NCBI GenBank assembly: GCA_973895155.1
Contig: OZ316893.1
Location: 9,863,660-9,927,659 of the forward strand
Length of the DNA: 64,000 bases
Source: Marsupella aquatica
Taxonomy: Eukaryota > Plantae > Marchantiophyta
Direction: 5' to 3'
Part shown: positions 9,944 through 38,664 of the stretch, piece after piece
How positions within the stretch are numbered: the first letter of the stretch is position 1
How the letters are laid out: the number at the start of each line of letters is the position of its first letter
Notes under the pieces: generated by a model
The model's input: only the letters and a program-made list of their open reading frames with translations
What the model was told of the DNA's origin: nothing
Databases searched by the model: none
Made by a program: the position numbers and the translations under genes

Positions 9944-10578
9944 CCTAATTATTGATAGGAACGATGGGCTGCCAAATGTGGTTTGACAACACTACCCTCC
10001 TCATCCACCAGGCTATGCAGGAGTCTTGCATCCCAATTGAAGAGTGTATAGATGGGGACCAGAAGCAAGAGTGGCTTTGATGGACCATGTAGGATAGTGA
10101 GGAATATAGATCAGTAGTACTGTCCATAACAGATCAATTATGAAGCCATTGTAATATAATCAATTTTAAAGCAATGCTTCTATTTTCAAAAAGCTTCCAA
10201 CACCATTCATTTGTGTATTATTTTAGAGTTTAAATCTCAGATTTTGTGTATGCAAACCTGTTGTTACCAGGCCAATTAGATGGCAGATCATTCAGACAAT
10301 ATTTTGCACAAATTGAATGTTTGAATTTGAAAGCATCAAAATATCTTCTGCAGGATCAAACATTGTTGACAGAGAAATTGATAGATTCTTTGAACGTGTC
10401 ACTTACAAAACATCAAAATATCTTCTGCGGAAGCAAAAATTGTCGATCTGAACACCTTCAGTTGTTCTATTCATGATCAGTTTCAAAATTGTACCTAGTT
10501 TTGTAGCATTTGTCTTTCTCACTACTAACTACAATCATCAGATGGATGTATAGAGACTTGAGAAGAGAAGTAAATCTA

Positions 10579-11634: not shown

Positions 11635-13054
11635 CTCCACAAGATTCATTTGTAGTTAATTTTAAGTTCAATTTAGTGTATAGTTTGATCCTCCATCAAA
11701 TTTCAGAGTTCAGATTTATGCAGTGTAGTAGTTGATTCGGGAGAGAAACAAAATGATTCAATGTAGTCAATGCATTCAAATAGGAGAAACATAGAAAGTT
11801 TCTATGCAGTCTCGTAGAGCCGATTGCACTGTCCAAATTGAACATAAAACCGACGAGGATTCGTGGATAGAATTTCTCAAAGAGAAATCAAAGCTGGGTT
11901 GGACCACTACTGGACGAAAAATGCAGAGAGAGAGAGTAAGTTGACAGCATTTGCGGATTCAAAACATTGTCCACTTATATTAATTCACAGCTTTGGACCC
12001 TTTGGACTTGGTTACATCATACATTGAGCCTACTTGACAAAGCCTGGTTGATCAATCAGTCCTTGAATTCAGCCCACCTCCAAGCGTAGCTGATCTTCCA
12101 GAAACGTCCGCAGCGCAATGAAGCTGTCATGAAACTTACAAAAAATATCACTAGTGCTCTTTTAGAACAATGGACAAGCTTTGGCAGCAGCTGCACCAAT
12201 AGCTATGGTGCAAGCTTGGCTCGACAAAAAGCTATGGTGGAAGCCCGTTTGAATGAACAAAAAGCTATGGCGGGAGTCTTCAGTCAAGCAACCACAAAGT
12301 CTGCAGCGCAAAAAGTTTTTGGCGGACACGAACCTCCGCAGCAGAGCGCACAACAGCCGCAGCCGGGTCGCCAATATTTGGTGGGCAGGGGCGGAACTGC
12401 AAAGCCAGGCCCTGGAGCTGCTTTGACCGCCAACTGGCGGTTTGCCCTAGCAGGGTGACCTCCTGTTGCCCGTTGCCCACAAGGGGCAAGGGCACCCTGC
12501 AAGGAGCGGGTGGGCTCGTCCCCCTCCTCACTTCCTCCTCTCCCCTCACCCTGCGCTCCCTATTAGTATGGGCCCTGCGTGGCAGGGCATCCACAGTCGT
12601 TGGGGCTTCCGTGCACATTGGGACTCCGCGCCCGTACACGCATGGAACCCACCCTAAGATGAAATCCTGCGCTAGGTGTACCTCTTTTACAGAAACCCCA
12701 CCCAAAAGTGGAGATCAGACTACTCTTGTGACACTTAGAAAAAATGTCAATTTATGGATTTTTTTGGGCAACGAACAGGCAGTGGACTGGCAGCCGACAT
12801 ACGGAAAGCCATTAATGACTTTCCAGGGAATCCCCTTGAATCAATTTAATACTCAATGACGTTGTTTCTTCTTGAGCTGTCACAAACTGATGAGGAAGCC
12901 CATCTTACTTATAAAGCCTGAAGGGGAAGCCGTGTCAGGTCTAGGCTTCTAGAATGAAACCTCTAGAGCATGACTCTAGGGCCCCACCAAAGTGTATGTG
13001 CATAGACATGGTGATATTGTGTATGACACAAGCCCAATGCCCGACGTGCATTGC

Positions 13055-16458: not shown

Positions 16459-18286
16459 AATGACCCCCTCTAGGCTTTTTGAGTTCAAGGTGTGGTCACA
16501 CAATGCTATTGGAGGGGAACATCTTAATTTTTCTCTCCCCGTGTTTCCTATTTCTTCACTCCCCTTGCCACTCCATTCCTCCCCACCTTTTCTTGACTTT
16601 GGCACCATTACATAAAAAAAGGCAAAATTAAACAAAAAGATGAAAAAATGAGGGAGTTATATGCAAAATGAACCGATTTTGCTTTCTTCTAAAGTCTCAT
16701 AATCATACTCTATGAAAAAATTTCAAAAGTTTTGTCATGCCCCAAAAGACTCTCATTCCAACATGTGTACTTTCTCCAGGAGTTTTGGATCTGGGTGTTC
16801 TTGACGGCTTTGGAAAGATCTTGGTGAGGCGGTGAAGATCGATATGAATTGCGCCCCAAATGGTCACCAATTAAGCGAGTTACGTCAGATTTAGGTTTCG
16901 CCGTTTTTTCACATTGGCTACGCGTTTGGCGATCTTGGCGTCTTCACGACTCGATTTGGGTCAACGTATGAGCGAGTCACATCGGCTTTAGGCCTTCGCT
17001 TTCTCCTCCAATTGGTTGTCGCCTTCGGGAGCTGTAGCCGCACGCTCAATCCAGAAGACGGATCTTCACTCGCGTCGACTCTCCAGCGGACAGCTCGACG
17101 GGCGCTTCAGCTTTGTTCCTTACTGTTCGTGCACCTGCTCAACGGTTTCCTAGGCTAGCGGTGACGCCATTTCTCGGCCTGATGTGGTGGGCTCTCTCCA
17201 TCGCCTCCCCTTTCTTTTCACCTACCTCGGTTGGGCCTTTTGTCACTTCTTGATGCGTTTTTGCTTCTATCGGATTGCGGCCTGTCATGTCTGCGTTGAG
17301 AGTGTTGGCGCGGGGCAAGCGCCCATCCCCACCCCACACTTCTCCCCCGTCCTCCCCTCCCCCTCGTGGCCGTCTTTGTGTTTGCTCTTCTTCACTGGAT
17401 CTCTCTCATCTTCGTGATGACCCCATGCCCGATGCTCTGCCAGTCCCCATCGTCGCCCTACACTAGTAGAAACCGGGGGGTATTTAGACCCCATTAAACG
17501 ACTATTCAGTACCGTATAGGACTTGGAAACGACTGGGAAGGACTCTAGTCCTTTATAGGACTGCGAGTCGTATGTTTTGTTACTATAATCAACTGAGTCC
17601 TTTATAGAACTGGTTTATAAGTCGTTTAATAGACTGGATTTTCAGTCTATTTTAGTCTTTGTGTGGGTAGCTTTGGTGAGTCATTTTCAGTCTTTTATGG
17701 GCTGCGATGATGAGTCGTTGGGAACGACTAAAAAGGTTATGGAGGGTAGTCTTTAAATATACTTTGTGGGGTATGTATAAGTCTTTCATGTCAACTGGAT
17801 ATGAGTGATGAAGACCCCACTATACTACTTGGAATGAACCCACTCTTGTGCACAAATAACATATTGCATTCATGTTTTATTGTGTACTTGGAATGAACTC
17901 ACTCTATAAATTCACCATTCATCATGTTAACATTAGAATACATAGTTTCAGAAAGCCATCTTCTATACCATGTACACTAATATGAATTCACAGATTCAAA
18001 TTTCATAGACTACAAAGAAGGTCACAAAGTATTCCTCTATACCATACACACTAATACTGAAATGATAAAATAGATTCAAGTATCATAGACAATCACCATA
18101 GAGCCATAGTTTGACATCAATCACTTGTTTCATACATACAGAATTCAGAAATATCAATGTCACACACAACGTCTCCTTCATCCTCTTTACCAAATGGAAA
18201 AATTGGTACAAATATTTCTTGGATCTTTCCAAGGCAATGTCAAAATGTGACACAATTCACATGATTCTATCTACACTTGCATTCAG

Positions 18287-21200
18287 TCACTGCAGACTAA
18301 CACACTCTAATGGCCAGAGCACAAGAGATCCTATTGCATCTGCAATTATTTCCTGAGGTGGATCATCGTCTCTATTCGGAAATGGCAAATTATAATCAGA
18401 TACAATCACTGTAGTCAACAACACTACTACATGGTCATCCGGGACCACTTTGCCATGGAATTTTGCATGATCCGGTCGCAAAATGCCTGTACCCACACAT
18501 ACCTGCGAGTCATCCTCCCATGATAGAAGATTATGGACTGGCTCTGCTGTGGCTATCACCTCCACCTTACCCTGGCTGTTTTTCTTGGCTTTCCTGGGTG
18601 GCTTATACATGACATTATTCATACCTTGGTTGTGAGTCATGACTTTGGCACGAGTGTTTTGTGCTGGTGATCGAGAATTGGCTACACTCTTCTTCAAAGA
18701 ATGTGCATCCATATTTGACACTTCTGATTGTGTAGCAGGATTTCCCTGCGACATCATCTCAGTACTTGCTTCAATTGAAGCATCTACAATCTTACTTGCA
18801 TCCAATGTTGCTCCCAAGTTTCAACGTCGCTTCACCCTACTCCCACTTGGTTGAGAGTCTGTCAACTCTGAATCAACTACAATTCAGTGTCATGTCCAGC
18901 ATAAGTCAATCACTCATCACATGTGCTAAATGTACATGTCACCAACCACAAAGTTGTCACTATCTCCTTACCATTATGAACAGCCTTCTTCCCCTTCTTT
19001 GCCATTGCCATATGCTCCATGTCTGCTTCTGTTGATCAATAAACACACCACAATATTCAGGTTGAATCTATTAACCACTGAATTGTTGCTCAACATTCAT
19101 ATAGAGGAATTTAAAGCATTAGCTTACCTGATACCTCCTTGGCTATGGTCACTGAGGCACTGGGCACATCTTCTTCATTATTGCTCTTTGAATCACCTGA
19201 TACATCAATCATGATGTCACTTCAGATCCCAGTTCATCCAACCAGTTCTTACAGAAAAGATTACCTCCAACCGGCTTAAGCTTCACAAAACTCCATGCAC
19301 TTTTCAAATGTAATGTACTGGATCATAGCAGGTTACCTGTCTCAGCAACCTTCTTGCCCTTCTGCTTACTGATTACAGGGTCCTTCTCTGCCTCCACTCT
19401 TCCTGCATTCAAACCATTCACTCAATTCATGAAAACTTACTTCTAACATTTGAACATAGGACACAATGAACAATGGGCCGGTGTCATTTCCATACCTGTG
19501 TCAGATTTGCCAATTCCCTTTTTTGTTAACAAGGGCACACTTTGTACAATGTTGCCCTCATTGTTTGGTTGGGAACCACCTAATTTTTCAATCACAAGCT
19601 TGAAATTAGATTCCACTGATGCAAGAAGGTTCACTACAGATGCCTCCACAATATCCAAACGATCAGCCAATTTACTTTCCACTCGAGGGAGTCCACACTC
19701 TAATGACTTCAACCGTTCACACATCTCTGTGAGAGTTGTAGCAGTTCCCTGTCATAACACAGCTTACATATCTCAGATAACTATCCCCAAGAACTGGTTG
19801 CTTACTTCCTACTACATTTCTTTCTGATGCTCAAGGCCAAATAGTCACAGAACATACAGAATTACAACATAATCACCTGTTTGGAAGTCACACTTGTCAC
19901 CTCACTCCTTTGTTTCATGAACTCCTCTCTCACTTCTTGTGCTGATGGTTCTTCACCTGTCAATTTCTTCTGCAGTCCACATCAACATACATATGAATGA
20001 AACCAAGTGTTGATTGTCAATGAAAATGTAATAATGGTAGCAAGATGATAAGTTTGAGGCTTACTATCAGGCATGTCACTGCCTTACCAATTGTTCTTTC
20101 ACTGGAGCATAACTTCCTCTCCCAGCCTGTGAAAGGTGTTTCACTTTGCCTCGAGCATTTGACATCAGTTCACTCTTGCTCTGTCCAGCCTCCGACATGA
20201 ACTCTTTGATTAACCGTGTCCATTGATCCAGTTCCAATGATGGGGGTGGTGGCATTCTCCTGTTAGAACCATTGTCTATCCACATCCTTTTCAACCTATG
20301 CCTCTCTTGTTTCAAAATCCTCATTGCATAATCTGATATGCAATCTTCAACTGGGCCCTTACCATCATTACCAACATAGTCCCACCGTTCAAGAATGTCC
20401 TTGCAGATAGCAGCCCAATCAGCTTTGTTCTGACTCCTAAACTCTGTAATGCTCAAATCTAACCAACGCAATACTTCTCCTCTTAGGTCAGAATGCCCAA
20501 CGGTTCTTACCATCACATGTGGGAGTTATCCAACCTTCGGAATTCACTTCTACTTTACCAAATTTGTTACTGTCTCCTGCCTTGGTACTCCCTGAAGTGC
20601 TACTAGGTGTCCCTCCACGGCCTGGTGTCCCCCCACGGCCTGGGGTCCCTCCACGGCCTGATCTCCCCCCACGGCCTGGATTGCATTGTCCAAACCTCCC
20701 TGGAGTCCCTGCACATTTACAGGATCCATTTACAGTCACTTACATTAGGTAAGTATGAATCATAAATCCTGCTGCCAAATATACACTGGACTTCAGAGCA
20801 ATTCTGCAATGACCAAGTTACCTCTCCCTTGGCGCATAGATGGTTCTGGACCACCTGTCCTATTGCTTTGTCTTGATGAATTAGGGCCATTTCTCCCGCC
20901 TGTGAATGATTGCCGCCTATCTGAATGTGGATGGCCTTTGTTGTTTTCGTGATTGTCCCAATCAGAGTCTGCATGCCAACAGGTACATGCCACACTCATG
21001 GACCTGTAAGATAAACTCTTTGCCCTAGCTACACATCAGATAAGTCCATATTGAGCTAAATCTCTACTACCATCACAAAATCACTAGCACAAGGCACTTA
21101 CTTGTCCAATCATCCTCCTCACCTTTCCATTGCCCTCTGTACCCGTCTCTACCACGCTCTGGGTGTTCATATTCATCCCATCCATCTTCTACTCCATCAT

Positions 21201-21444
21201 AGTCATCATCATAATTATCAGGCGTCCCTTGCCAATAACTCTGGCTCCTTCTAGGGTATGGATTATGTGATTTCTCTCTAGCTGCCCACCTACCTGGGAC
21301 TTGATGAGGGCCCTGTGCATCCTGCACAGGTGCATTTTTCTGTGAGCCCCCTGCATCTGGGTCTCCATCCATATCCAATCTTTCCTCTTCACCCCACTCT
21401 CCAAGCCCCATGTCTGTCTCCATGTCATCACCCTCTTCCCCCAT
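18287..21444 (-). CDS. CACTA TnpA-like protein (multi-exon)
   Basis: Acidic N-terminal exon, GRGGTP repeats (~20600-20680), Ptta/En/Spm Transposase_24-like exon 20076-20516 (QWTRLIKEF...KSELMSNARGK), coiled coil 19443-19724, and a C-terminal Tnp1-type domain (FHGKVVPDDHVVV...LPFP...IGSLVLWP). GT-AG sites lie between segments; the exact exon chain is not fully resolved. Confidence 0.75.
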
Positions 21445-21621
21445 AGCTTTTGCACAGCACCCACAACCAAACAGGGAGAATCAGCACACTAAATTCAAAG
21501 TATCAATCAATTTCATGCATATCCAACTATCCTAAACATCATTCCAGGCAGCAATTCCCGTTCTATGACTCTGTGCAGGTAGTCATCCTCAACCTCATAC
21601 TTGCCAATCGCCAGCTGTTGC

Positions 21622-24600
21622 CTATTGCAAATCATCAACCTCATCATATTCCATTTGCCCAGGTTCATCATATGTCTCTCTCAATGTTAAGGGAATGTAG
21701 TCAGTCCCTGCCCGAGTTGGAAGTACAGTCTCATGACTAGGATGCTCGAATGCAGCATGGTCATCCAAACTGAACTCTACTTTACTTCCATCCATCCGCC
21801 TGTTCCGTGCTTGGCTATGGCATACCACCCTCCAGCCATGTGACTCCTCCACATCTGCAAAGAAAGCCTGTTCAACTTGGCTAGGGAAAACAAAAGGCTC
21901 AGACCATTCTGGTACTCTGGACCTAAAATTGGCCAACAAGAACCCATCATGATCACGCTTCATGGTGGCCCTTGGTCTCTGCCACTCTGATTTCACCCAT
22001 GATCCCTTCATCAATATCACTGGGACACTTGTGTTACCATAATTCAACACCCAAATGTCGGTCAACTCCCCCACGTAACCCATCTTCATCCACCCCCTCT
22101 GTTCTTTAGAGGTTCTCTGCTCAAACACAGAAATCAAACCACAATCATATGATACACAATGGTCACCCTGCTCATCCCTCACTCGATAATGATTTCCATA
22201 AGCTCTCATCCGTTTGTAGGTCAGAATAGACAATCGTGGTGGCACAGATAGAAGATACAAATCCTTCTCCATATCTGGGTGATGTCTACTATGCTCTCGA
22301 ATTGTCACCCGAATCCACTGCTCGAACTATGGGAAGGGATCCTGCTGCCCAGAGTGTGCAGCTTTTTGCATATCATATTCCCTACAATATGAGGTACAGG
22401 GATAGTTAGGTCTAAACAACACATGACAACCTAAGATCACCCTTGGAACAGACAAGAAGCATCACAACAAAGGCAAGTCAATTCAATCACTCACCTCCAC
22501 CATGGTTGCATAGGCTCTGTGTTTGCCAGCACATATGAATGAGCCTTGTCTCGAATCGCAACAGGCAGCTGAACAACACGTCCCACACCTTCAACAACCT
22601 CGCCACTCACTCCATCATCTTCACCAGATTTCCAAACTCTTGTCATAGCTTCACCAGACCCAGCCATGTACTCTGTTAGGAATCCCAACGTCTCATCCTT
22701 AATGTACCCCAATGCCATGGAAGCCTCTGGCCTGTAGTATGTTCTCACATGACCTTTCAACAACTTCATGTATCGCTCCATAGGGTACATCCATCTGGTA
22801 CTGACTGGCCCATACTGCCCTAGCTCTTCTACCACATGGATTAGGAGATGAGTCATAACATCAAAGAAAGCAGGGGGAAGTATATCTCCAAGTCACAGAG
22901 GACATAAGCAGCATCCTGCTTCAACTGCTCCAATCCTTGGGGATCCCACACTTTCACACATATACGGCGAAATACATTGCACAGTCGAAGAATGACATTA
23001 CGGACTGGTTTCTGCATGAGACCTCTGAGGCATAGGGGCAGAATGTGCTGCATCAACACATGGTAGTCATGTGTTTTCATACTGCCAAGTTTATTCTTTG
23101 TAATATGCTTCTTGAAGGCACCAGCATAGCCAGAGGGCACTTTCAGACAGCTCAATCTATACAAGAATGTCTTCCATTCATCCTGTGTGCACACATAGGG
23201 AGCTTGGAACTTGAGAAGTACATTGGGATTGCTTGCATGGGGCTTCAACCAAAGGTGAGGGCGAATCCCCTTCTGTTGCATATCAGCTCGAACTGCTCCT
23301 GTATCTTTCTCACCCGACAAGAACTTCAGCAAGCTCTCACAAATATTTTTCTCAATGTGCATGACGTCCACATTGTGTTTGCTGGGCTCGAATTCTTGCA
23401 CTCCACAAAGCAAAGAATTCAACAATAGAAACACTAATTAACCACATAGGAGGATTGTAACCAACATCAATCCACCATTGCTCCAATCTAAAATTGCAAT
23501 CATACAGGGGCTGGAGGCTAAGTACATTACCCTCCAGTACTCCAACTCCAAGTCCATCAAGGTCTGTCTTTTCACACCGTGTTTCACCACTGGATCCTCA
23601 GGTTCTCGATCAGTGACACTTCTCTTGTCCCAATCAGCCTTCCTGGCTGCCCACCTCAGGACTTGCTCTCTGGTGACCCTCTGTGGTGGGCCACGAAGCT
23701 CTGTTTTGTTGTTGAAGTGTGCAATTTGAGACCGTGTGTGCCTATAAGGATGATCAACAGGCAGATACCTTCTATGCCCCTGAAATTTCATACTGTGCAG
23801 GGCATGCAACCACTCACTTGTCACATTTTTCCCACATGGTGTGCACCCCACATAGCCCTTTGTCACTCGTCCAGATATGATGCCATGGCCTGGGTAATCT
23901 GCTATATCCAGCAAACAAATTGCATGCAGTCTAAAGGGGCTGGGTCGAAGAAGCCCCTTCAGAACATCATGGGTTAACACCCCTTCTATCCACAAAGTCT
24001 TCCACTCTTCCACTGCTGGAGCCAACATGATATCTATGAATTGCTCGGTCACAGAAGCTGGTCCAGGGATTAACAACACCATCATGACAAAAAACCTCTT
24101 TGTAGTCATCCATGGGGGAAGGTTGTAATTTAGCAGCGTAACCGGCCAACATGAATAACGGTTGTTTTTGTCTCCAAATGGGTTTACTCCATCCAGTGAT
24201 AGACCAAATCGAAAGTTCCGCTTCTCTACAGCAAACTGTGGCCACCTCTCATCAACAAATTTCCAATGGTTGGAATCTCCAATGTGACGTTGCAGGCCAT
24301 CACTGCTCTTGTTATCAGGAGTCCATGTCATCAGCTTGGAAATGGCAGGGAATCTAAACAGACGTTGTAGTCTAGGAATGAGAGGAAAATGATGAAGAAC
24401 CTTGGCAGGGTGTGTACATTTCCCTACATTCTTGTACCTGTGCTTACCACAATGAGGGCATGTCAATTTATCTGCATGCTCTTTGCGAAAGAGAACACAC
24501 CCATCAGGGCATGCGTCAATAGACACATAGTTCAGCCCAAGGTTAGACATCAATTTCCTAGCCTCGTACATATTTTTTGGAATTGAATTACCATCTGGTA

Positions 24601-25321
24601 ACACATTTCGGCGCAGGAAGGTCAACAACTCTGTCACAAATATATTGGGAACATTGTGATTGCCATAGATGTTCAACAACAACACGACAAAACCCAGCTT
24701 GGAGCAGTTCGACCCCTCGTAGATAGGAATGCAAGCTTCTTTGATGTGTTTTGGGCCCCCAAACACCCACTCCCTCTCTGCTGCACCTTCCCCAATGTCA
24801 AAGTCAGGTTCAGCTTGGCCGTCGCCAATGTGTGGCTGCGGTTCATTGTCCTCTTCTGATTCCACTGTGTCGTAAAAAGCATCAAGGTCTTCAAAAATCT
24901 CTTGAACCATTCTTGGGACATCCATCCCACCGTCCTCAGTGACTGCCTCTGCATCTCCATCTTGGTCATCCACGTTCTCATGTTGGACCCCAGGACCATC
25001 CTCTGCACAGTCTATGTCCTGCTCTACGTAGTCTCTACGCCTAGCTGTATTAGAATCCACAAAGTCAGCTCTCCACTCTTCATCAGAGGAGTCTTCTTCT
25101 GCTGGTACATTCCAAACCCTCCACCGAGGGTGCCTTTCATGTCGCAGCAGGTGAAGGTGCATAGTGTTCAAACTCAACGACTTGAATCCTTGGCACTGTG
25201 TGCATGGGCATCTCATCCTCCTACTCCTACCTTGGGCGGCCCGGGCTTGTTCACGCATCCACAATTTAGAATCATGATGCCTAATCCTAAATGGGTTGTG
25301 AAGAGGCAACCTTGGAGCCAT
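21622..25321 (-). CDS. CACTA TnpD transposase (Transpos_assoc, Transposase_21, DUF4218, DUF4216), spliced, with one apparent frameshift
   Basis: Motifs MRCPCTQC, IDACPDGCVLF, FPLIPRLQRLF, LSLDGVNPF, YNLPPW, DYPG, DVMHIEKNICE, MKTHDYHVLMQ, MTHLLIH, RWMYPMERYMK, EPFVFPSQVEQAFF. A 1-bp deficit in the G5 run at ~22873-22877 shifts YFPPAFFDVMTHL out of frame. Confidence 0.95.
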
Positions 25322-25647
25322 CACTATACACACGCACTCAGCACCCTGTCATTTTATTATGCAAGTGAAAAATACACTTCCTGTTAAGGATTTCACCCCC
25401 GACTGTACTTGCCAAAATACATAACGTTCCAAAAAAACTAAAAAACAAAAAATATAGGTGCCTGAGTCATGTACCTATTCTCAAGTGAATGAGACAAAAT
25501 TCCTAAATGTTTGAGGGTGTCAACTCCTCCGCTGTCCTCACATGTACTGCCTCTGCACGTACATCCATGACCATATCAGAGTCCAATCATGTATAGTCAT
25601 AGACACAGGTGCCAGGTGCGAGACCGGTGTGAGATGTCCTCATCTTA

Positions 25648-26178
25648 CTACCACATCAAATACGGATACCAATCCTGTTGTCGATGCCACTCAGCCCTGA
25701 GGTACTCAGGCATGTACATTAAGTCATCAAGGTCTAAACCCTGCTCATGCCATGGTGGTCTTCGATCCGTGCCTACAAGCAGTGGCAGCAGTGCCCTCCA
25801 TGGTGCACATGTTGCTACCAAGTCCCTCCACTGGGTACTAATTAGTCTATATTTGCAGATATCTTGTGCGCCAGACACCACAAGAACCCTCGGCCAGACA
25901 TGTGTAAGAACTATATCATCTGCCAAATCAGGCAACAAGGAACCACCTACAGCATCGTGCTTGTCTAACTCATCTGCTGAAAAGTAAATGTCCTCTTCCG
26001 ACTGTGCATCCTCATTCACCACAGCATTCACAACACATCCAAGGTCTGCAGGCATTATCTCGGATGGAGCTACACTCTGTCTGGTTACCAATCCACACAA
26101 GTAAGCCCAAGCAGTAGCCATGCACGATGCAACCCGTAGGAGGACCCTACATAGGGCCTGACGGTCTGGAAGAGGCAG
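25648..26178 (-). CDS. F-box-like protein (CACTA cargo)
   Basis: GSLLPDLADDIVLTHVWPRV...ICKYRLISTQWRDLV fits the F-box pattern LP.LP.DI...I..R....R.VS..W..L. No recognisable substrate-binding domain. Start codon uncertain. Confidence 0.65.
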   Translation of the reverse strand: MPLPDRQALCRVLLRVASCMATAWAYLCGLVTRQSVAPSEIMPADLGCVVNAVVNEDAQSEEDIYFSADELDKHDAVGGSLLPDLADDIVLTHVWPRVLVVSGAQDICKYRLISTQWRDLVATCAPWRALLPLLVGTDRRPPWHEQGLDLDDLMYMPEYLRAEWHRQQDWYPYLMW

Positions 26179-26414
26179 CATCCCCACCAAAGTCTTCAGC
26201 CAAACAGAGCCCAGCAAGTAGATTCACAGTCACACCCCACGCAGCAGGAAACAACAATCACTTCAACTGCGACCAACCATGACAAGATGAGTTAGTTCAA
26301 GGATCACATTTATTACAAAATTGTGTTTTATACAAAAATATGAGGGACTCCTACTCCTCACTCTCTCCCACCTTTGCTAAGCATACATCTCCGCTGAATC
26401 TTGGAGGGCCAGGC

Positions 26415-27206
26415 CTAAAAAATATCAAAGTCCCAAGCATTCTGTCGCTTCCCTCTAGCTGCTGATTCCAGAAGCCAATCAGGGGAAAGCACCCAAAGAT
26501 TGTTGTTCATGACAAAATCACGCACTGTTGTCTTAAAGAATTTTCTGCATATTTTCATGTATGACAGACCTACAACATGAGTGGAGGTTTCTGTTAGACT
26601 CTCCTCCACTGTCCCACCTAGCTCAACAACTATAGACTTGTATAGTCTGCACTTAGTCTCCCCAATTCCTTCTTCTGCAAATACCACACTGAACCCCTTC
26701 ATAATGGTATTTCTCTCCTTGCCATGCTCATTCAATATAGCATCTGCACGCATAGGATGGTGTCCTATGTTGACAACAGGTCCATATTGGACAGAAGCAA
26801 AGTTGGGTTTCTCTGCCGCTGCTTCATAGGCTTCCTTTTCAGCCAAAGCCTCTGCAGTGGCCTCCTCACTCTCCCACAACTCATATTGCTCAGTACTCTG
26901 TACACACCTATGTTTAACAGAATCGGTCAGCCAAGAGACTTCAACTACTTTTAGACCTTGGTTGGTAATGGCAGAATCAATGAAGGACAATGACCACTTG
27001 TTCATCACATCCAGCCATGTCCCCGCAACAACATGTGTAGTCTGTGGAGTGATGTCCTTGACTTCAGTCCCATGGAACTCTGAGAATCGTTTTTGTACGA
27101 TTGGCCAACTCACTTGGGTGAACCCATAGTGGCCAGGAATCAAAATGGCTTTGATTCCAGCCAACAGAGGCGGGTGGTCAACCTTTGTACGTTTCCTAGA
27201 GGCCAT
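26415..27206 (-). CDS. Tandem BRCT-domain protein, DNA polymerase lambda-like BRCT (CACTA cargo)
   Basis: Two BRCT repeats: G....ITPQTTHVV...VVEVSWLTDSV...YEL and MKGFSVVF...LGGTVEESLTETSTHVV...VLSPDWLLESA...DF. N-terminal basic NLS-like SRKRTK. Intronless and open. Confidence 0.88.
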   Translation of the reverse strand: MASRKRTKVDHPPLLAGIKAILIPGHYGFTQVSWPIVQKRFSEFHGTEVKDITPQTTHVVAGTWLDVMNKWSLSFIDSAITNQGLKVVEVSWLTDSVKHRCVQSTEQYELWESEEATAEALAEKEAYEAAAEKPNFASVQYGPVVNIGHHPMRADAILNEHGKERNTIMKGFSVVFAEEGIGETKCRLYKSIVVELGGTVEESLTETSTHVVGLSYMKICRKFFKTTVRDFVMNNNLWVLSPDWLLESAARGKRQNAWDFDIF

Positions 27207-27882
27207 GTACACACGGGCCACCTAATCACTGCAGACTGGAAGATAATGCGTTCACCTGATAATCGGAGGGCCCTTAAAATGCTGCGTTTATAACTTGGTC
27301 CAGTCCAGTCGTCTGGTGAGTCTCTGCTCCGATTCCAAACGGGAGAAATATTGGGACAAACGTACTAGACACCTGCAAGCATGCACCTCATAGTTTGAAT
27401 ATGTGCCTTCACAATATTGAAGGTGACAAGTGCAATTGTTTTGTGATGCCACATACAGATGTTGTAAATGGGCAGACATTCAATGAGAATACAAAATGTT
27501 GGTACACTTTAAGGGAATTCTCACAAATTAAATAGCCTTGTAACTTATATGCTCATAATGAGAAGTCCTGATTTAATTTAAGCAGTGTCATGTAAGTCGT
27601 GATCAAAATGATTGCAGAGTTAAAAAAGTTCCTAGAAGGCTTAAGGGCAGTTTTTGAAGGCATGTACCCAGGAACAAGTAATGAACTTAGGGTACTTGTT
27701 GCCTAAGCATCCTCTCCTACAGAGGTCCTTCTTCTCAAAATTGGAATGTCTGCAATCTCCAAGGTATCCACATCAGGTGCACTATGCATGTATATTATTC
27801 AGGTTCAAAGCCAAGAAATGTGATCTCTCATGGGAGTGTGCAAAGTAGGATCTATGGCATGGCGATGACAATAGAAGATCCA

Positions 27883-28485
27883 TCAATCAACACCATGTGC
27901 AGAGTGATCATAGATGTGTCTGTCACAAGCATAGCCTTCTGCTTGACGCTCCTTCAAACAATGAAAGTGCCACATGGTGGGACACCTAACATAGTGGACT
28001 ATGTCCACCCAGAAATCTTCATCGTGCTGACCACATGCCTTGCACTTATGAAGTGGGCAAGCTGTGGCAAGATCGGGCAAACATGAAAAACAAAAGAACC
28101 TCACACAATATCTGTCAGGGCATTTCCTAACAAGTGGTGGAGCATCAACAGAGCCCTCATAAGACCCCAACTTCCCACACTGTGCACACTTAGCCTGCTT
28201 CTCCAAACAATCAGTGCACATCCAGCCTCCCTGGTGTGTTGACGGGAGGCCCACCCCTGGACAGTTGTTTTCTGCAGCAAGGTCAGACTCCGGGTTGAGG
28301 TGGAAATGCCTCATGCAAGGGCCCTCACATATGGCTAAGCCACCACCATCGTCACAAATGGCACAACAATGAGCTGCCTTCTGGAAAATCTGACTTGCGG
28401 AGAAGTTACTACCATCTGGCCCAACTACACCTGTGTTGCTCACCTCTGTCCCCCGCTTCTTGGCTCGGATTTTAGGGCGTGCCAT
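27883..28485 (-). CDS. EDM2/NSD-type multi-PHD finger protein (CACTA cargo)
   Basis: CAICDDGG.L..CEG.C.R.FH...C...W.C.DC......C..CGKLGS...C....C..FF...C...CPLHKC..C...RCP..WH..CL follows the EDM2 PHD module. N-terminal NLS-like RPKIRAKKR. No other EDM2 domains. Confidence 0.85.
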   Translation of the reverse strand: MARPKIRAKKRGTEVSNTGVVGPDGSNFSASQIFQKAAHCCAICDDGGGLAICEGPCMRHFHLNPESDLAAENNCPGVGLPSTHQGGWMCTDCLEKQAKCAQCGKLGSYEGSVDAPPLVRKCPDRYCVRFFCFSCLPDLATACPLHKCKACGQHDEDFWVDIVHYVRCPTMWHFHCLKERQAEGYACDRHIYDHSAHGVD

Positions 28486-29154
28486 GCCTACGCATGAGAC
28501 AGATAGTACAATTTAGCAGAGTGCACGGACAATACAATTTAGTGCAGTGTACAAAAAGTACAGTGTAGCATATAGACTAGAGTGGCAATTGCTACTGCAA
28601 TGAAATGTTCACACACATGTGCAGAGTAGACATACTTTTTGGTTTGTTGAGCCCACACTAAAAACTGATCCCCTTGTACAATAGCTCCACCTACACCTCA
28701 ATTTTGTGGCTATGATTCACCAAAGGAGATCTGCAACAAGATTTAATGCATTTGAATCACATATAACAGTCGTGACATGTAAAACAGGCATTTTTTGAAC
28801 AGGATTGGTATCAAGCACTGTGATCAGGGTTGTAATTTATACATCCTACATAGGCTATGATAGTGAATGAGATAAATAAGTTAGGCATAAATCACTTTTT
28901 CCAGGTTATCACATGGCCCATTAATTCCAGTCTTTGAAAGGAGACTTTTAAGTGAGCGTGCTAGCCTCTTAAATTAGGATATTGTACTTAGTGCAGCCAT
29001 AATAGGATAAGTTATGTACTGTTGACCCTAAACCCTGGACCCAAAATTGGTCATAATTCAAAATCTTAAGTAAATATCCTCTCTGTTCAAGTCAAAGTGT
29101 TAAGTTATAGGTCAATGGTCTCTGGTTTGTGCATGCGGTGTGACAAGTGGTCCT

Positions 29155-29604
29155 CTAGAGCGTGTGATCCAAACATGTGTAGACACCAAAGTGACCGGTG
29201 GTGGGGTCTGGGAGGGCAGGACAAGTGACATCGCCAGGCACACTATAGGATGGCGAGTGGTTCCAGATGATACATTGTGCTCTGTGAAAAAACCGACATC
29301 CAAGAGAACGGTCATCCAACTCTAGGCCAGAAGCCCTACAGGCAGGACAGTCATATTGGCAACTGTGCACACACCCTTGGGCCCTAATTTGTGGCGGGTC
29401 ATGTACAAGAGACAGAAATACCAAGGATGTTGGGAAGGGTGGAGAAGCAGGTACAGGCCGGCTGTAGTTGTTCCTGGCAACAACTGGGTACTCAAAGTAC
29501 CATGCAAACTGGGCTGGAAGGATCCCAAGTCTGACATACTCAAGGCGCAACATCTCTGCCTTGCGTGCAAGCCGCACATGTTCAGCGTTGCGGGTCCTCA
29601 CCAT
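29155..29604 (-). CDS. Small hypothetical Cys/His-rich protein (possible CACTA cargo)
   Basis: ATG-initiated, co-oriented with the other cargo ORFs. Basic N-terminus (MVRTR) and a CVHSCQYDCPAC cluster. No family recognised. Confidence 0.35.
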   Translation of the reverse strand: MVRTRNAEHVRLARKAEMLRLEYVRLGILPAQFAWYFEYPVVARNNYSRPVPASPPFPTSLVFLSLVHDPPQIRAQGCVHSCQYDCPACRASGLELDDRSLGCRFFHRAQCIIWNHSPSYSVPGDVTCPALPDPTTGHFGVYTCLDHTL

Positions 29605-31242
29605 AAGTGTTGCTTTTGTGGAGATGTCGTGTGTTCACGTCCTCTGATAAGCACCTTCGATCAGCAAGGTGAGCAGGAGCTGTATTTGCCTCACCAACGG
29701 CAACCAACCTTAAATTATCAGTTCCCACTCACTGTGTCATTCCATTGGTTCCAGCTAGGGGTCACAGTGTAAACATAGCATGAAACACTCCTAATCAACT
29801 TGCTTACAAACTACAATATCCAGAAAGAGTGAAAGTCTCACCCTCCGGTGAGCAGCAGAGAGGTAGTTCACTAGATGTGTTGATGTACAGTTAAACCTCC
29901 ACTATTGCTTACTTCTGGTGTATGCTGCTCAGAAGAAGACATATTAGTAGCAGCAAATTGCAAATAATGGCCATAAGCAAACCGTGAGAGTTTGCAGAAT
30001 GCTACGACAAATCCATCACAGCAGTGCTCCACAGGAATGAAACCAAGCAAAATTTGGTGACCTCGGCCAATGACAAGGCCAATGTAGTGAACAATCCTTG
30101 ACTGATCAGGATATGGATTGGAATTACAATTAGTCAGCTCTTCTTCTTTGTTTTCTAACTCTGGGGGAAATGAGCATGACCAGGGAATTCTCTGAGAAAT
30201 AGAAGTGCACAGGGAAAATGAAATTGGCTCATTCAGCTGCGCAAGACCGACCATTGCAGCATACTTGGACAGTTGTTCCGCAATACACTAGTACGACAGG
30301 AACTCAAGGAAACATTTGTGGCAATGTCTTTGTGGTGCGTCCCATGGCTCCCTAAACCCAAAAAACCCCCCAGCTCAAGCCGATTCCCGCAGGTTTCGTG
30401 CTTGGCGAGGCCGTTTCCGCGGCTTAGCGGCATGGGACGCTGCTAACCTTCTACTACTACTATTAACATTTTACACACATATACTGGACAGATCCTTCAT
30501 CGGGTCATGAGATACGTAGCCGGCCTAATATAGGCCTTCCCCTGTCTTCCCCTGTCTTCTTGTTAGGTATGTTTGGATTCCGCCGCCAGAATGATCCCCA
30601 ATAGGCTTGGTTAAGCCGCTAAGACCTCTCTCAGCTCGACACATCCAACTCTCACTCCCCTGCTTACTTTCCTTCCTTCTGTTGATGTGGGCACTCTTCA
30701 CACAAGTTAATGCGACACACAAATAGCAAAATGACTCATTCTGACTGAGTCATACCATGCACTTGCCATACAAACAGTACATCTCATACACAAGTTCTGC
30801 GAACTAAGCCGTGAGGCCAACTCTATTCAGCTCTTAGGCATGAGGAAACATGAATATACACAAGGGTCACTGTATGACTAACCGAGAGCTTCTCGTACTA
30901 CTTGATCCCAGCCCGGCTGGTGCAAACTAAAAACTTGCTAAAGAAGAGGCCCTGAGCTCCCCGCTGCCCAGGTACTTATCCTGGTAGTGGATCCGCCATT
31001 CTTTGCATCGTAAGCCTAATCTACTTAACAGTAATCTACTTGCCCGAATCTACCTATGTACAGCAAGGCAGGAGCACAAGTGTTGCTCCTACCAGTGGGA
31101 CCGCAATCCCACTAAGCTAAGTGTCAGGGCCGCTCCTGGTTCTGATCCTAATCCTAAACATGGAGATCCGCGCCCGCCCTGCCCACTCACGCCTCCTCCC
31201 TCCACGTCCGCCCTCCCTAAAAGGAACGGCGCCCTTGCACCG

Positions 31243-34200
31243 TCACGACACCGGTGGTGGATCCTCAATGGACGCCCCCAACACTTCCTCCTCAGCCACT
31301 GCCGTTGGCCCGCCTACTGACAGATTACCTGCCCTTGACCGAGTCAACTCTCCATCGGCCTGACTGGGTCCACCTTCGGCTTCAGCCTCGACACCGGCCT
31401 CGGCAATACCCACGGCTTCGGCCTCAGCCACTCCCACGGCTTCGGCCTCCCGTTCCCCTAGGGTAGTTGGATCCTTAGCCGTGACCCTGTCTGGGGTCGG
31501 TGCTGGGTCTACCTCCTTGATCACCACGGCCTGTGAAGTCGTATTACTCCTTGACCCTGGAGGTTTCCGCTTCTTCTTCGTTGGTGGCTCGGCAGCTGGT
31601 CCCTTCCCCTTCCCACTTACTTCCGGCACTGGTGCAGTTGACGCGGCTTGTCCTTCGGCAATTACCACCCCTGGTAACTGGTTTGTCCCAACGGGAGATG
31701 GACCTGCTGCAGCTAAGCATTTAAATACTGCGGCTTGTTTCTTCAGCCGCTCTGTTTGGTTGTCGGCCCGCCGCTGTAGGTTCTCCATCTTCCTCGTGAT
31801 TTTCTCCAACTCCTCTTGGGTTTCATCCAGGTCCTTACGTGCCCCCTCCAGCTCGTTTTTGGCCTCCTCCTGCTCCCTGTGGGCTTCCTCCAATTCCTTC
31901 TTCAAGGTAGCCCTCTCCTCCTGGGTTGCTCTTAGCTCCTTGTCGAGCTCTGCAATGATGACAGACTCCATCTGGTTCATCTTGGCGTAAGTCTGTTCGA
32001 GCATCTCGTCCTTCTCCCTTAGGTCGGCCTTGAAGCTGGCCGTCAGGGACGCAAGCTCCTGCTGCAGCGCCATAATCCCTTGATAGGATTTCCCTAACTC
32101 GACCTCCTTCTGCTCAAGGGCTCCGCGGATTTTCTCGAGCTCCCCTTTCAACGCCCATTCCTTTCTTTGGGTCTCCGCCATGGCCCGGTTGTTGGCTGTT
32201 ATGTGGGCCTCCTCTGTATTCTTCAGCTCTTGCTTCCACTTCTCCCTCTCTTTGATCGTGTCGGCCAACTCTTCCTGCGTCTGAGTCAGTTTATCCTTGA
32301 TATTCTGATTATCAGCCTGCGCGGCGTCCAACTGCCCCTGCATGATGTTCAGCTCATGTCGTTTAATCCGCAGTTCATCTTGGGCTTTCTTGGCCGCCCT
32401 TAGATTTTCAATCTCGGCTTCCATCCTCCTAAGCCGCCGAATGACCTCGTCCTTCTTGCTTCTCTCTAAAGCCACCGCTTCTTCTAATTGGTGCTTCTCC
32501 AACTGCTCCCTATGGAAAAAGGGTCCTACCTCCAACTCCTCTCCAAAGATGCCGAGCGCAAGTTCCCCACACATCTCACCATACTCCATGGCTCTATTCT
32601 TAGCGTAGGTGGAGTAAGTAGAAGTGATCGGCATCGCCCATCGTGGCCTCTGCTCCCAAGCCGTCCTGCGGATCTCTTCAATCGTGGCTAGAGGTTTGCT
32701 TCCTTTTTCGGCTAGCCGCCTGATGTCCTCCGGCCAATCTCCTCCTGGTAAATCCTTTTCCTTAGCCAGGGCGGCCTCTTCCTCCTGCTTGATTCGCTCC
32801 TGAAATTCCTGCACCGTCTGTTTTATGCCGTCGAAGCTCGGGGGAGCAACATCTGGTGGGGGAGACTCAGGGCTACTCTGCTGGTTGGGGTCCCCTCGCA
32901 CTACCCTTGGAAGTGTGGGGACAAACCGGCCACAGGTCCTTACTCCTGGAACGTGATGGTCCGACCCATAGCCGGAATTATCATGGCTGCAGTCCTCCAC
33001 TGCCTCCTCTACCTCTTGGACGTCCGGCTTCTCCCTCTCCTCTTCGTCGGTAGGAGCTTCAGGCAATTCTGCCTCAGATTCGGAGCTTGAGGTTCCCACG
33101 TACATTCGAACACCTGGCTTGGATTCCGGCCTGATTCTCTCCTTGTCTCCAGCAAAGGGGTTTTCTCTTGTGAGCCGGTGTAGGCCTACCTCTGTAGTAG
33201 TGTCCTGCATTGTTGCCGTTGCCGTTGTTGTTGCCGATGCCGATTTCTTTTCTTTCTCCAGTAGTTTCAGCAGACTCTGCATGCCTGGTTGCTGCATCGG
33301 CAAGTCTTCCTTCCTGGGCCTAAACACCTGCTCGATCGTAGGACTAACAGGTGGTTGAGGCTTTTCAGCCAACGGCCTCGGCGTTGGAGCTTCCTCGGGT
33401 GCCCTTACCTGCAGGGGAAGTACCGGGGCAAAAGTCTGACTTCTGGCATACCGGCACAACAGCGGCATGTGATAGCCAAGCCGCGACACGCTCCCCATGC
33501 CGATTACCTGCTGCTCCTCCTTTAAGATCTTCTTCAATTGGTTGAGGAGGTACCCGTTGTAGTCCCGGCTTGGGTCTGGCCTTTCTGCCAGATAGACCTG
33601 TGCCTTGCCGATCTCTGCCCTCGGTAAGTTACAATGCATGGTCACCCGCAAGAAGTCGATCATCTCTCCTATGTGCGGGTTGGTGCAGGTGTTCCGGAAG
33701 AAGCCATTCTTCGTTGATGGCCCGGGGAACGACCGGAACTCCTTGTCAGGCAAGGTCTTCCTGGTATCAACTTTGGTCTTATTGCCCATCGGCAAGCCAA
33801 ACACTTCGGCAATCACCTTGGGAGTAAGATAGAAATCCTTCCCATATATCCTCGTGCAATTGGTCTCGGGTTCCCATGACCCCACGAATTCTAATAGGTC
33901 TGACTCCGGTACCTCCGGCTTCAGCCATGGTAATCTTACAAAGGCCTCCAAGCCGGATCCGGCCATGAAGCCTTGGTACTTCTTGGTCTGCATGGCCGTA
34001 AAGCATGCATCCTCCTCCCGTGCAAAATGTAGTTGCACCTCCACCGGTAGGGTTGCCGCCCAGCCCTTCTAGGTGTCATCCCTGGTTGGAATGGCCTTGA
34101 TGGGATCGACCTCCTCCTCTTCGGCTTCTCCCTGCCTCCTGCTCTGCTGCTCGGCTGGCTTCTTTGGTGCCGCCGACCTCGTTCTTTTTGCCGGGGTGGC

Positions 34201-34842
34201 TTCATCGTTGACGGCTCCCTTCCTCTTCATCTCTGCTGCCGTGGAGGTTTCTCCTAGCACCGTTGCCTGGGTCCACCTTTCCGTGCTACCCTTTAATTCC
34301 CAGTGTATGTCGTTGCAGTTCTTGATGGCCTCTCGGATGCCGACGACGCTGTCTTTGCAAAACAGAAGATCGTCGAGTTGATTGGAAGTAGGCGTCCACA
34401 GGAACTCGTCCTTGATGAGTTCGCCTCCTAAGAAAGCCGTCTTCTGCAGCTCCCACAATCGAGCGAGCTCCTGCCGTTCTCGAGCTGCCCTTTCTGACTC
34501 CTCGTCCTCGTAAGTCTTGATGTACTCAGTTGCCCGTTCGAACAGGCATCCCCAGAAATGTGCCGCTTGATTGACGTTGCTCATACCCTCCTTAGGTCGA
34601 TCGTCGGTATCTACTCTCTCCCCGAGTGCTTGCCTAAGCAGCTGACAGTAGTTGGCCTCCCGTAGTCGTCTGCCTAGTTCGTGCTCGCAAATGAGCCACC
34701 ATCTCCTGCAAGCGCTCCTTACCCCTCTCCTCTGCCGGTCCTTCTTCCCGTTGATCCTTCCTAGCCGCCGACGCTTAACGCGCCCTAACCCTAATCGGGT
34801 TTTCACCCTCAACCTTACCTCCGGCCTCTGCCCGGGTTCCAT
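31243..34842 (-). pseudogene. ~1200-codon TE-type ORF (plant-transposon-protein-like domain plus long coiled coil) with one in-frame stop
   Basis: ORFs 34069-34881 and 31243-34044 are in the same frame, separated by a single TAG and 8 codons. LLEF...IYGKDFYLTPKVIAEVFGLP resembles gypsy accessory ORF domains, and a heptad-rich E/K/Q region follows. Visibly more GC-rich than its flanks. Confidence 0.7.
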
Positions 34843-35619
34843 GGTTGCCCCTAATTGTTTATATTTTCCTTGTTTTGTCACTATACTAAGGTGTTCCTAG
34901 GGTGCCTTCCTGCTTTACCCACTTAACCGGCCGAGTGATTCCTGTCTAGGCATCACAGTCTTCACAGGAAAAGAAGAATCGCTAAGTACAGTATTGTTAA
35001 TAGTAGTTTCGTTCTAATTCTGAAATCTACACATAGGATGGAAACCCAGGACATTTCTCATGAAAATTGAAGATCCATTCAACAACTCCATGATAGCCTA
35101 TTCCGCATTGTGTCCGTCCCATGCAAGCGAGGGGTGTTCAGCCGAGCTTAGTCTAACCACGAATGATTGTTCTGGAAGCAATTGCGACAATGTTTTGGTA
35201 ATTTTCTCCTACCCAACTCAATAGCTCACAAACATGGCATTGGACCCATTAACAAATTATACTTGCCATCATTCTCAACTGTATTACATGGCCCACACTA
35301 CTGATGTCCCTGACTCTTAAGGGAAACTCATCTCCTGGGCCAGCAACATCTCAGATTCTACAAAAATGAGAAACTATGAAGACTTATTGAAGTCATATCC
35401 TGTGATTGTAGCATGTATGATTCACTGGGACTGCAAGCAGTTCTAGATCCTGCTGCACTTTATATACAGCAGCAACCTGAGCTCCATGAACTTGTTTTTA
35501 ATAGACGTGCGTTTGACCACGGCTACAACTCCAAAACAATCAGTCATCCAATCAAATCATAACGAAACCCACCCGCAAGCTGAATGTAGAGGATAGAGAC
35601 AGAGAAAATCACCGGGGCA

Positions 35620-35860
35620 GTGAAGTCGGATCACAGGGTGCGAAACTAGTACTCAACAGGGTAAGACCGATCACAGCATACAAAGCACGGAGCTAGACCA
35701 CCAAAACTCCAGCAAGACAGTGTCGTGTCCATTTATTTGTAGGGAATGAAGTCGGATCACAGAGTGTAAAACTAGTACTCAGTAGGGTAAGACAGATCAC
35801 AACAAACGAAGCTAACACAACAAAGCACATAGAGGAGCAAAACTCCAGCAAGACATAAAT
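35620..35860. repeat. ~126-bp direct duplication inside the CACTA
   Basis: TGAAGTCGGATCACAG...AAACTAGTACTCA..AGGGTAAGAC.GATCACA at ~35621 and ~35747. Confidence 0.8.
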
Positions 35861-38664
35861 CAGACCTCGCAGCCTTTTGACTAGCAAAGGGAGATAGTCT
35901 ACGCTTTCCATTGCTGGTCACAGCGCGACGGGCAATCAGGATGATGCCATGCCGAGTAGAAGAACAACAAAGCATTCTATAAAAAGCACTGAGGTTGGCG
36001 TTATAGTAAAAGTGGTAGTACTTCTAGTAGCGCGACCAACTCGCTAAGTGACAGTCCGGAGTAGCTTACCTTCGAGAAGAAAGCCATAGCAGTTTAGCAG
36101 AAATCCCCAACAAAATCCCCACTCTGAAGATGGTAAGCTTGCAGCTGCTCCCCCGAGTGCTCCCCTCAACCTCGCCACTTCTATTCTGAGCAGCGCAGGT
36201 CCTCTCCACCCTCTCACCTTGCACCTCCTGAACAGGTGACCAGCACTATCCACTCCCACCGCAACTGTGGACGGTCCCTAAAAAAATGCAGATGACAGCG
36301 ACCAATAGACAAAGGATTACATGCGTAGACCTGGCAGAAATCTTCAGTGCAATGCATGACTAAGCTGACCAGTATTTCTCAATAGGGTACCAAAAGCCAC
36401 AAACAATACAAAAGGCAGTGACAAGCACAGGCGGTGGCAACTAGCAAAGGCAGTGGCAAGCAAGCAATCAATGATGATAGCGGCAATCGGCAATGGCGAT
36501 GGAAGGCAGCAATAGGAATCACCTGAATGAAGTACCAATCCGCAGCGGGAGGGAATGTCAACCTTCTTGTCAATTGCAGACCACCTCCGACCTCAAGGTC
36601 TCCCTCACGTCAACACCTAAAATGTAAGTGATGACCCAATGTATCCTCCCTGATCGCAGCTCGTCCCCGCCCGCAGCTCGTCCCCACCCGCAGCTTCTCC
36701 CTGCATTGAGGTCCTCCTCGACCATAGCTCTTGCAGCTGCTAGGCCCAGCCTTTGATGGCCTTCTGTAATGTTTGCAGACAATGTCGCCTCCCTTCAAGC
36801 AACTTGCCTTCCGTAGCAGTAGAAATCACCTATGCTCGAGCAACTTGAATGAAGTCACAACAATGGGAGCAGGCGGCGACGGGACTGTCAGCTCTCAAGC
36901 GCAACCTTCACAGCTCACTAACATTGCAGGACTGTAAAAAATGACCGGTTCACGTTGTTACCGTAGCATCCCTGGCACACCAAATCCTTTGTCTCTAATT
37001 CCACCAACCAAGCGCTCGATGGTTGACAATGCGCAGCTGAGCTAGGAGAAGAACTGAATGATTGTGGCTGCTCTTCTCTGCAATCCAAGCACCCGGCTGG
37101 CAGCTCCGCAAACCCTGATCGTAGCTGCAATCTCTACTCCGTTGATTGAAGAGCCTCCCTCTTCAAAGCTTGGTTGACCTAGCTCTACAATTGACGGAGC
37201 TTGTCATCCTCTGCATCAAAAACCCTCCACCACCCGACCTTCCGCGTACTTCAGGAAGCTCCTTACCACCAAGCGCTTCTCAGGGATGCCTCGCAACAAT
37301 GTCCTTACCACCTAACGACTCTCAAGGCTCTCCCAAACCAATGCAAACCCCTTGCAATCTAATACACTGTGTCCAAACAGAGGCAGAACTGTCAAAAGCG
37401 CTCGCAGTAGTGGACGCAGCAATGTGAAGTGAATGAGCTCCGACCTTCCCTCGCAAAATGCTTACCCTAAACTCTGCTCGTATGCTAAACTCACAAACAT
37501 TCCGCAGGTCGTTCTGTCGCAAAGCACAAATGATGGGGCCCAAACGCATGGGGCGCGGACACTCGATACTTCCCTTCACAAAAACCCAGTTTCATACGAT
37601 GACCAAAGCATACTCACCCTAACCCAAGACTTAGTGCAAACAGGACCCTAAACGCTAATCCAGGGCCCGTTTCCGTTGAGTTGAGCCGTTAGGCTTGATA
37701 AGTCATGGCCAGAGTCTTGATGTAGGGGAACAATGTGGACTTAATTAGGCAACAAATGAGTACATTTGGGTGAGGGTAAAGGATAACTTTAAATAAATCC
37801 CTTTGGCGACAAAGATGAGGCCACTTAATCAGTTGTGCCCCACCCTAACCCCCCCCCCCCCCCTCCGGGGCCCCCTCATGGAATTACCTCTATCAAAAGT
37901 ACCCTAAGTTATGAAAAGTACCCGTTACATGGACCTGTTTTGAGAGTTGAAAGATAATCAGAAGTAAAGGGACCATGGAGAAGAGGGGGCCAATGTAATT
38001 AAGTCAAGCATCACTCATTCAAAATCCACATGGACATAGTTGGGTACTATATGAGACACCAGGGGACAAGACATTTTTGAAGGGTTGGCATATTTACCCT
38101 CATCCCTAAACTTGGATGTTGTGCACATAACATCCACTCTCCTACCCCAAGTACAAAACAACTCCTAACAACTTAGGCCCAATGTAGTCACTTGTGCCCA
38201 ACCATGTTCATTAAGAGCCTAAATGTTTTCATTTCACCCACATTGCATGTTGTTGGGGGTTCCATGGTCTGTTATTATAATGTAACTCCTCATGTGAACT
38301 TTGTGAAATTTAGTATTTAAGGGACCATGGAGAAAGTAGGCCAATGGAGTAATTGGAACCATGAACCTTTTTGGTCACAAATAAGGCCATCTAATGAGTT
38401 ATGCCCCTTGCTATCACCATCTTTATAGAATTAACCCTCTTCAACATAAGTGATCATTACCCATGTAGTGCTAGACTATTCACCGTTCACAAAGTAGCAA
38501 GGACCCTTCTCATAGTCATTTAGAGAACCATATAACACTAATAGTCTTTTGTAGTTTTCAACAAAACCGGCACAATGAGAGCGAGTCGTTTCAAGTATGG
38601 AAAAAGGACTTAGTGGGCTTAGTCCTATAAGGTATGGTCTAAATGGCCCCGGTTTCTACTAGTG

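Follow-up and report, generated by a model that had tools for sequence, protein, structure and literature searches.

The open reading frame (ORF) at 27883-28485 of the window, by which we mean the whole 64,000-nucleotide stretch of Marsupella aquatica DNA that was analysed, is a damaged gene inside a CACTA transposon. Judged from its sequence relatives, it is the sign of an unnamed, old and conserved family of stand-alone triple-PHD proteins of the histone-reader type. Our main reading, which we hold tentatively at a probability of roughly 0.4, sees in the ORF a damaged copy of a stand-alone triple-PHD gene that is old and conserved and whose intact members would serve CACTA elements as a chromatin adaptor. 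As the window copy is damaged, any function belongs to its intact relatives.

The PHD gene and its lesions

27883..28485, minus strand: EDM2-type triple-PHD ORF, ATG to stop, 200 aa as it stands, intronless
27805..27882, minus strand: in-frame tail 3' of the premature stop, 25 codons with C206 and H209, the conserved family end and then the family stop

In the Pfam search the ORF matched three NSD/EDM2-type PHD models in order, namely PF23011 (E 2.6e-4), PF22908 (E 4.3e-3) and PF23004 (E 5.7e-3), each below the curated cut-off, and its coding content is an EDM2-type triple-PHD cassette only. This agrees with an earlier note on this DNA, which had described an intronless 200-aa ORF with the Cys/His spacing of the EDM2 PHD fingers, standing alone without the rest of EDM2; likewise, when the family profile is matched to longer proteins, the best homologues are named EDM2 proteins. 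The length of 200 aa is, however, set by a premature TGA at codon 201 (27883-27885), and when the frame is read through this codon it reaches the family-wide end at 226 aa. The stop, by which C206 and H209 are lost, and the substitution C165Y (27991-27993) leave one zinc site of finger 3 with a single ligand out of four; we assign all three residues to this site on the presumed cross-brace pattern of PHD fingers. The copy thus keeps 21 of 24 ligands as it stands and 23 of 24 when read through the TGA, and in fingers 1 and 2 all 16 ligands are present. Altered ligand positions had also been claimed, and they exist, but they are of two kinds: a His-to-Cys change in finger 2 is family-wide and still supplies a zinc ligand, while C165Y and the loss of C206 and H209 are specific to this copy and are damage. 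At the position of the stop, Arg stands in nine of the 11 aligned relatives; a change from Arg to stop at codon 201 fits methylated-CpG decay, as far as can be inferred from proteins.

The CACTA element around the gene

17461..38664, minus strand: CACTA (En/Spm) element, 21,204 bp with the probable nested insertion counted, recognised by termini and transposase domains
17461..17478, plus strand: terminal inverted repeat, 3' end of the element, CTA flank at 17458-17460
38647..38664, minus strand: terminal inverted repeat, 5' end of the element, 18/18 identical, CTG flank at 38665-38667
18287..21444, minus strand: probable multi-exon TnpA/Ptta-like gene, PF03004 E 0.0055, exons read by eye
21622..25321, minus strand: Tnp2-type transposase in pieces, with Transpos_assoc, Transposase_21, DUF4218 and DUF4216, probable introns
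25648..26181, minus strand: 177-aa cargo ORF directly upstream of the transposase, faint F-box-like stretch, PF00646 E 0.082, below cut-off
26415..27206, minus strand: tandem-BRCT cargo ORF, intact, intronless, 263 aa, PF00533 E 3.7e-13 in two stretches
29155..29604, minus strand: 149-aa Cys/His-rich ORF with a basic start, matching no Pfam family
30400..37600 (approximate limits), no strand assigned: probable younger nested insertion, CpG-richer, with two long minus-strand ORFs

The proposal that the gene is transposon-borne was borne out, since the ORF lies between identical 18-bp CACTA termini and upstream of a Transposase_21 gene. The terminus occurs twice in the window, where 0.04 matches are expected, and there is no third occurrence at up to three mismatches. 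The two flanks, CTA and CTG, agree in two of three bp as a putative target duplication, and one transition would account for the difference. The motif GACTA, a subterminal repeat that was picked post hoc, is present in four and five copies in the terminal 400 bp of the two ends versus 0.64 expected. For the sequence CACTAGTA at 30286, considered as an element end, there is no second end that would match it, and we take it as due to chance or as a remnant.

Above their cut-offs, the transposase matches PF02992 (205 bits) and PF13960 (62 bits), with an E value of 1.4e-60 for Transposase_21 (Pfam). Its frame shifts near 22870 at a place with no visible splice site, which makes a frameshift probable, and the transposase of this element is broken. 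The TnpA/Ptta-like candidate reaches 17 bits with PF03004 against a cut-off of 28.7. All genes of the element (Cys/His-rich, PHD, BRCT, F-box-like, transposase and TnpA-like) are on the minus strand. The Cys/His-rich ORF was tried as a second PHD gene and rejected, as comparison gave no paralogy with the PHD gene; it might be further zinc-binding cargo, going by its composition.

The PHD gene has a CpG observed/expected ratio of 0.26, the BRCT gene one of 0.25 and the transposase one of 0.33, against 0.67 for the segment of about 30400-37600. The depletion in the PHD gene, similar to that of the transposase, would fit long residence in the element. Within the nested segment the ratio is 0.5-1.0 in 17 of 18 intervals versus mostly 0.1-0.5 in the element core. 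The two ORFs of this segment (257 and 916 aa) are coiled-coil and lie in one frame with one stop codon between them, and neither long terminal repeats nor a significant Pfam family were found in it. Remains of a non-LTR retroelement adjoin the CACTA element at 38665-41124 on the plus strand, with a Cys/His motif and a reverse transcriptase (RVT_1 at 39726-40715); the 5' part of this retroelement seems to be the site of insertion of the CACTA element.

A family of stand-alone triple-PHD proteins

Relatives were collected in successive searches that gave three of 61 candidates, then eight new ones of 34, and then, in a full profile search with E up to 0.001, 563 matches, with 15 family members among the 150 matches listed. 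Using two diagnostic patterns as the definition of membership, we count at least 28 relatives besides the window protein, the longest of 304 aa, and two more proteins resemble members by eye. With 50% identity as the limit for clustering, the family falls into 15 or more clusters. Among the matches listed, the family Cys in finger 2 occurs in none of the 113 representatives longer than 350 aa, and 106 of these carry the His of EDM2.

In the alignment of 12 rows (the window protein and 11 relatives) pairwise identity is 38-81%, with the run-off protein P0024 at 24-36%; there are intact relatives at 75-81%. All 11 aligned relatives share the start of the window protein, a basic stretch, and nine share the end motif. 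Seven of them have all 24 ligands and two have 23, one ends early and one is out of register; in total seven are intact and four lesioned. When the subgroup of the window protein was compared with eight distant members, the ligands were alike at 21/22 to 24/24 positions (95-100%) versus 34-41% of non-ligand positions, with P at most 1.6e-7 in each of the eight comparisons. Several more members pass into unrelated sequence, and some others may be short for no other reason than the end of a contig. So many broken and run-off members form a pattern as in decaying mobile copies, and deep conservation combined with frequent breakage would fit a selected gene that is carried by mobile elements.

Of 18 family proteins looked up, four are annotated as "hypothetical protein" and the longest contig has 5,691 bp, whereas annotations of the nearest host paralogues come from three liverwort genera. 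By its nearest named proteins, the host would be a liverwort or another non-seed plant. The locus scans found no relatives of the PHD gene in metagenomes, viruses or prokaryote genomes, and the scan for relatives of the CACTA transposase found none. Placement inside a transposon was seen for the window copy only. Two structure models had low confidence (pLDDT 57 and 62); Foldseek returned PZP and tandem-PHD matches with low TM-scores, and a wider structure search gave weak PHD/RING matches with a best Z of 3.8. As these models are weak, PHD-like fingers are all that we take from them.

Relationship to EDM2, NSD and liverwort paralogues

When the first four family sequences were searched against longer proteins, 12 were returned from 3,842 candidates, six of which bear the name EDM2 or EDM2-like; E values for these longer homologues go down to 1.9e-20, with 28-32% identity over the aligned stretches. 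The EDM2/ELP proteins (Arabidopsis EDM2; P0005-P0015 of Solanaceae and palm) have three atypical PHD units in the order found in the family, and EDM2 and the family also have in common a closing H-x-I-D...T-P-x-R-D-H-I motif after finger 3. The His-to-Cys loop of finger 1 has 10 residues in Solanaceae EDM2 and 11-12 in the family, but two in NSD2. Unlike EDM2, to which they are 27-33% identical, the family proteins are devoid of the RFD, the acidic run and the methyltransferase-like (ELP) domain, and their finger 2 has the His-to-Cys swap and is shorter by a deletion of about 20 residues; the window gene further differs in being intronless and inside a transposon. Neither the RFD nor the methyltransferase-like (ELP) domain gave a Pfam match in the family proteins scanned. 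Acidic residues (D/E) in the 20 positions before finger 1 number 0-5 in all 11 family sequences counted, whereas they number 10-13 in nine of 11 EDM2 proteins and four and five in the other two. Since the acidic run is reduced, H3K9me2 specificity cannot be carried over from EDM2.

Fingers PHD1-PHD3 of NSD2/NSD3 are the best solved-structure match by sequence (E 7.5e-10). The window protein differs from the NSD methyltransferases in having neither SET nor PWWP, with sub-threshold PHD matches only, and NSD2/NSD3 have a short finger-1 loop and lack the EDM2-type C-terminal motif, whereas the family has the features of EDM2. The best BLAST matches (112-118 bits) are short EDM2-like paralogues of liverworts (Calypogeia CAM6087769.1, Marchantia BBM97127.1, Riccia KAL3685775.1), in which the cassette is at or near the C-terminus and which share a VQC-x-RCP-x-x-WH motif with the family. 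They differ from it in that five of six are 620-770 aa long with long N-terminal regions and all six keep the His of EDM2. The proteins P0042, P0044, P0046, P0048, P0066 and P0070 make up an unnamed liverwort clade of short EDM2-like proteins, which stop at or near the PHD cassette and have no methyltransferase-like domain.

A tree was built from 41 cassettes chosen from 153 (12 of the family, six liverwort short paralogues and 23 other EDM2-like; 227 columns). The family takes one side of a branch of length 1.2 with a support of 100/100, so that the profile search and phylogeny against EDM2 and NSD that the earlier note had suggested show EDM2-type features in a family on its own branch. The attachment point of the family has a weak support of 23/50. 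In topology tests by fast constrained search with 5,000 replicates, a topology that makes the family sister to the liverwort short paralogues was neither preferred nor rejected (AU p 0.19), and one that makes it sister to seven seed-plant-type EDM2 cassettes, a set labelled by tree position with only two named members, was rejected (p 0.005). The liverwort short paralogues were considered as the donor, as the fast tree placed the family beside them and the better tree did not; because the two trees disagree on placement, we name no donor.

Possible roles of the family

Additional genes for chromatin factors inside DNA transposons are known, as the VANC protein of VANDAL elements and TnpA of Spm, both of which recognise DNA sequence (preprint 10.64898/2026.08.24.746577, in excerpt), and the TET/JBP genes of fungal EnSpm and other transposons (PMC12730594, in excerpt). 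The window gene is like these an extra chromatin-related gene in a DNA transposon, as seen for the window copy, but they bind DNA by sequence or are enzymes, whereas it encodes a predicted module of the histone-reader type. PHD fingers inside transposases are already known from Rehavkus (PMC6446971, in excerpt). Pack-CACTA fragments resemble the element in enclosing host-derived sequence between CACTA termini, but they have no transposase of their own, whereas the window element has one, though broken. A Pack-CACTA capture would also be near-identical to a host gene; the PHD cargo belongs to a conserved family that is distant from every host gene among the proteins compared. We found no paper on an EDM2-type PHD or BRCT gene in CACTA elements, although Repbase or subscription papers may hold one. 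Four publications do not use the term "PHD" in their main text: an atlas of transposon products in Arabidopsis (PMC13547354), a review on gene capture (PMC13317346), the survey of fungal TET/JBP genes (PMC12730594) and the preprint on 962 Spm protein models (10.64898/2026.08.24.746577).

According to the main reading, the family would be transposon-borne in general. An intact member would enter the nucleus via its basic N-terminus and bind histone tails; it is predicted to bind nucleosomes and to keep proteins encoded by the element at marked chromatin. A reader by itself lacks catalytic, RNA-binding and sequence-specific DNA-binding parts, so its specificity would have to be supplied by a partner, for which the TnpA-like protein is a candidate. 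The tandem-BRCT neighbour might be a second adaptor, for break repair. A broader proposal, which we regard as possible yet doubtful, is that a CACTA lineage of plants took the EDM2-type cassette from a host silencing regulator at an early time, cut it down to a protein that stands alone, and keeps it with the tandem-BRCT gene as a chromatin toolkit for reading host marks, to escape silencing or choose sites; if true, this would be reader-based counter-silencing, distinct from the DNA-binding VANC and TnpA. A histone reader that came from the host heterochromatin machinery and was kept by a transposon would, if true, offer a route other than recognition of DNA sequence.

The shielding proposed in the earlier note is rather unlikely in our view. 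It would have the isolated reader occupy repressive marks, or titrate partners of the host EDM2-like proteins, and so weaken silencing. A reader-only architecture has the look of a dominant negative, EDM2 associates with transposon chromatin that carries H3K9me2, and it also suppresses proximal polyadenylation (PMC7529245, in excerpt), and VANC probably arose from a captured host silencing protein or chromatin regulator (PMC13547354, in excerpt). Yet the PHD protein has no part conferring element specificity, unlike VANC and TnpA, its acidic run before finger 1 is gone, and the mark on DNA transposons of land plants is often H3K27me3 and not H3K9me2 (PMC11982613, in excerpt). We prefer the adaptor to a decoy because a reader on its own cannot distinguish the chromatin of its element from any other. 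The other function suggested in the note, promotion of read-through, in which the protein would suppress internal poly(A) sites in the manner of EDM2 so that the long element transcript reaches the transposase, is not supported and we consider it improbable. All cargo genes do lie upstream of the transposase on the same strand, poly(A)-like hexamers follow two of four cargo ORFs on the 3' side, and an acceptor-like site, which ranks at the 92nd percentile by a crude score, precedes the start codon of the PHD gene by 2 nt. Such signals are, however, weak and common; the role of EDM2 needs ASI1 and AIPP1, the latter bridging EDM2 and ASI1 in a complex (PMC7472560, in excerpt), and the family protein, compared with the EDM2 protein P0013, has neither RFD nor methyltransferase-like (ELP) nor RNA-binding domain.

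As to the origin of the gene, it is also unlikely, slightly more so than shielding, that the family is a small unannotated host gene family of which the element captured one copy that then decayed. The window copy alone has a known context, the element has other unrelated cargo (BRCT, F-box-like) and CACTA elements capture host DNA (PMC13317346, in excerpt), but a host family does not sit well with the many lesioned relatives, the spread over at least 15 clusters, the lack of a named genome annotation among the 18 family proteins looked up, and a base composition of the PHD gene that is like that of the transposase. That we see a recent neutral fragment of a host EDM2 gene is largely refuted and has hardly any credit left. 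The window copy is broken, as such a fragment could be, but the identity of the window protein to the 152 non-family EDM2-like proteins compared, liverwort ones included, does not exceed 35%, and near-identity to a host EDM2, named in the earlier note as the finding that would speak for such a fragment, was thus absent among them. This low identity and the single long branch of the family argue strongly against a recent neutral fragment, intact relatives exist at 75-81% identity, and the ends, the deletion and the ligand swap are common to sequences that are about 40% identical. The intact natural members of about 220 aa can be assayed directly, and for structural work the family offers the EDM2/NSD triple-PHD cassette in a minimal form that occurs in nature.

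Other features of the window

At 8627-11478 there is a Harbinger-like pair, a DDE_Tnp_4 transposase on the plus strand facing a Myb/SANT-like ORF on the minus strand, which inverted repeat arms at 7787-7837 and 12600-12650 may bound. A multi-exon host gene occupies 48500-54383 on the minus strand, one exon of which has a weak UDPGP match; we take it to resemble the plant fusion of RimM with a sugar-nucleotidyltransferase. The segment 41091-42601 is a 1.5-kb AT-rich element with inverted arms of 129 bp (81% complementary) and is MITE- or MULE-like.
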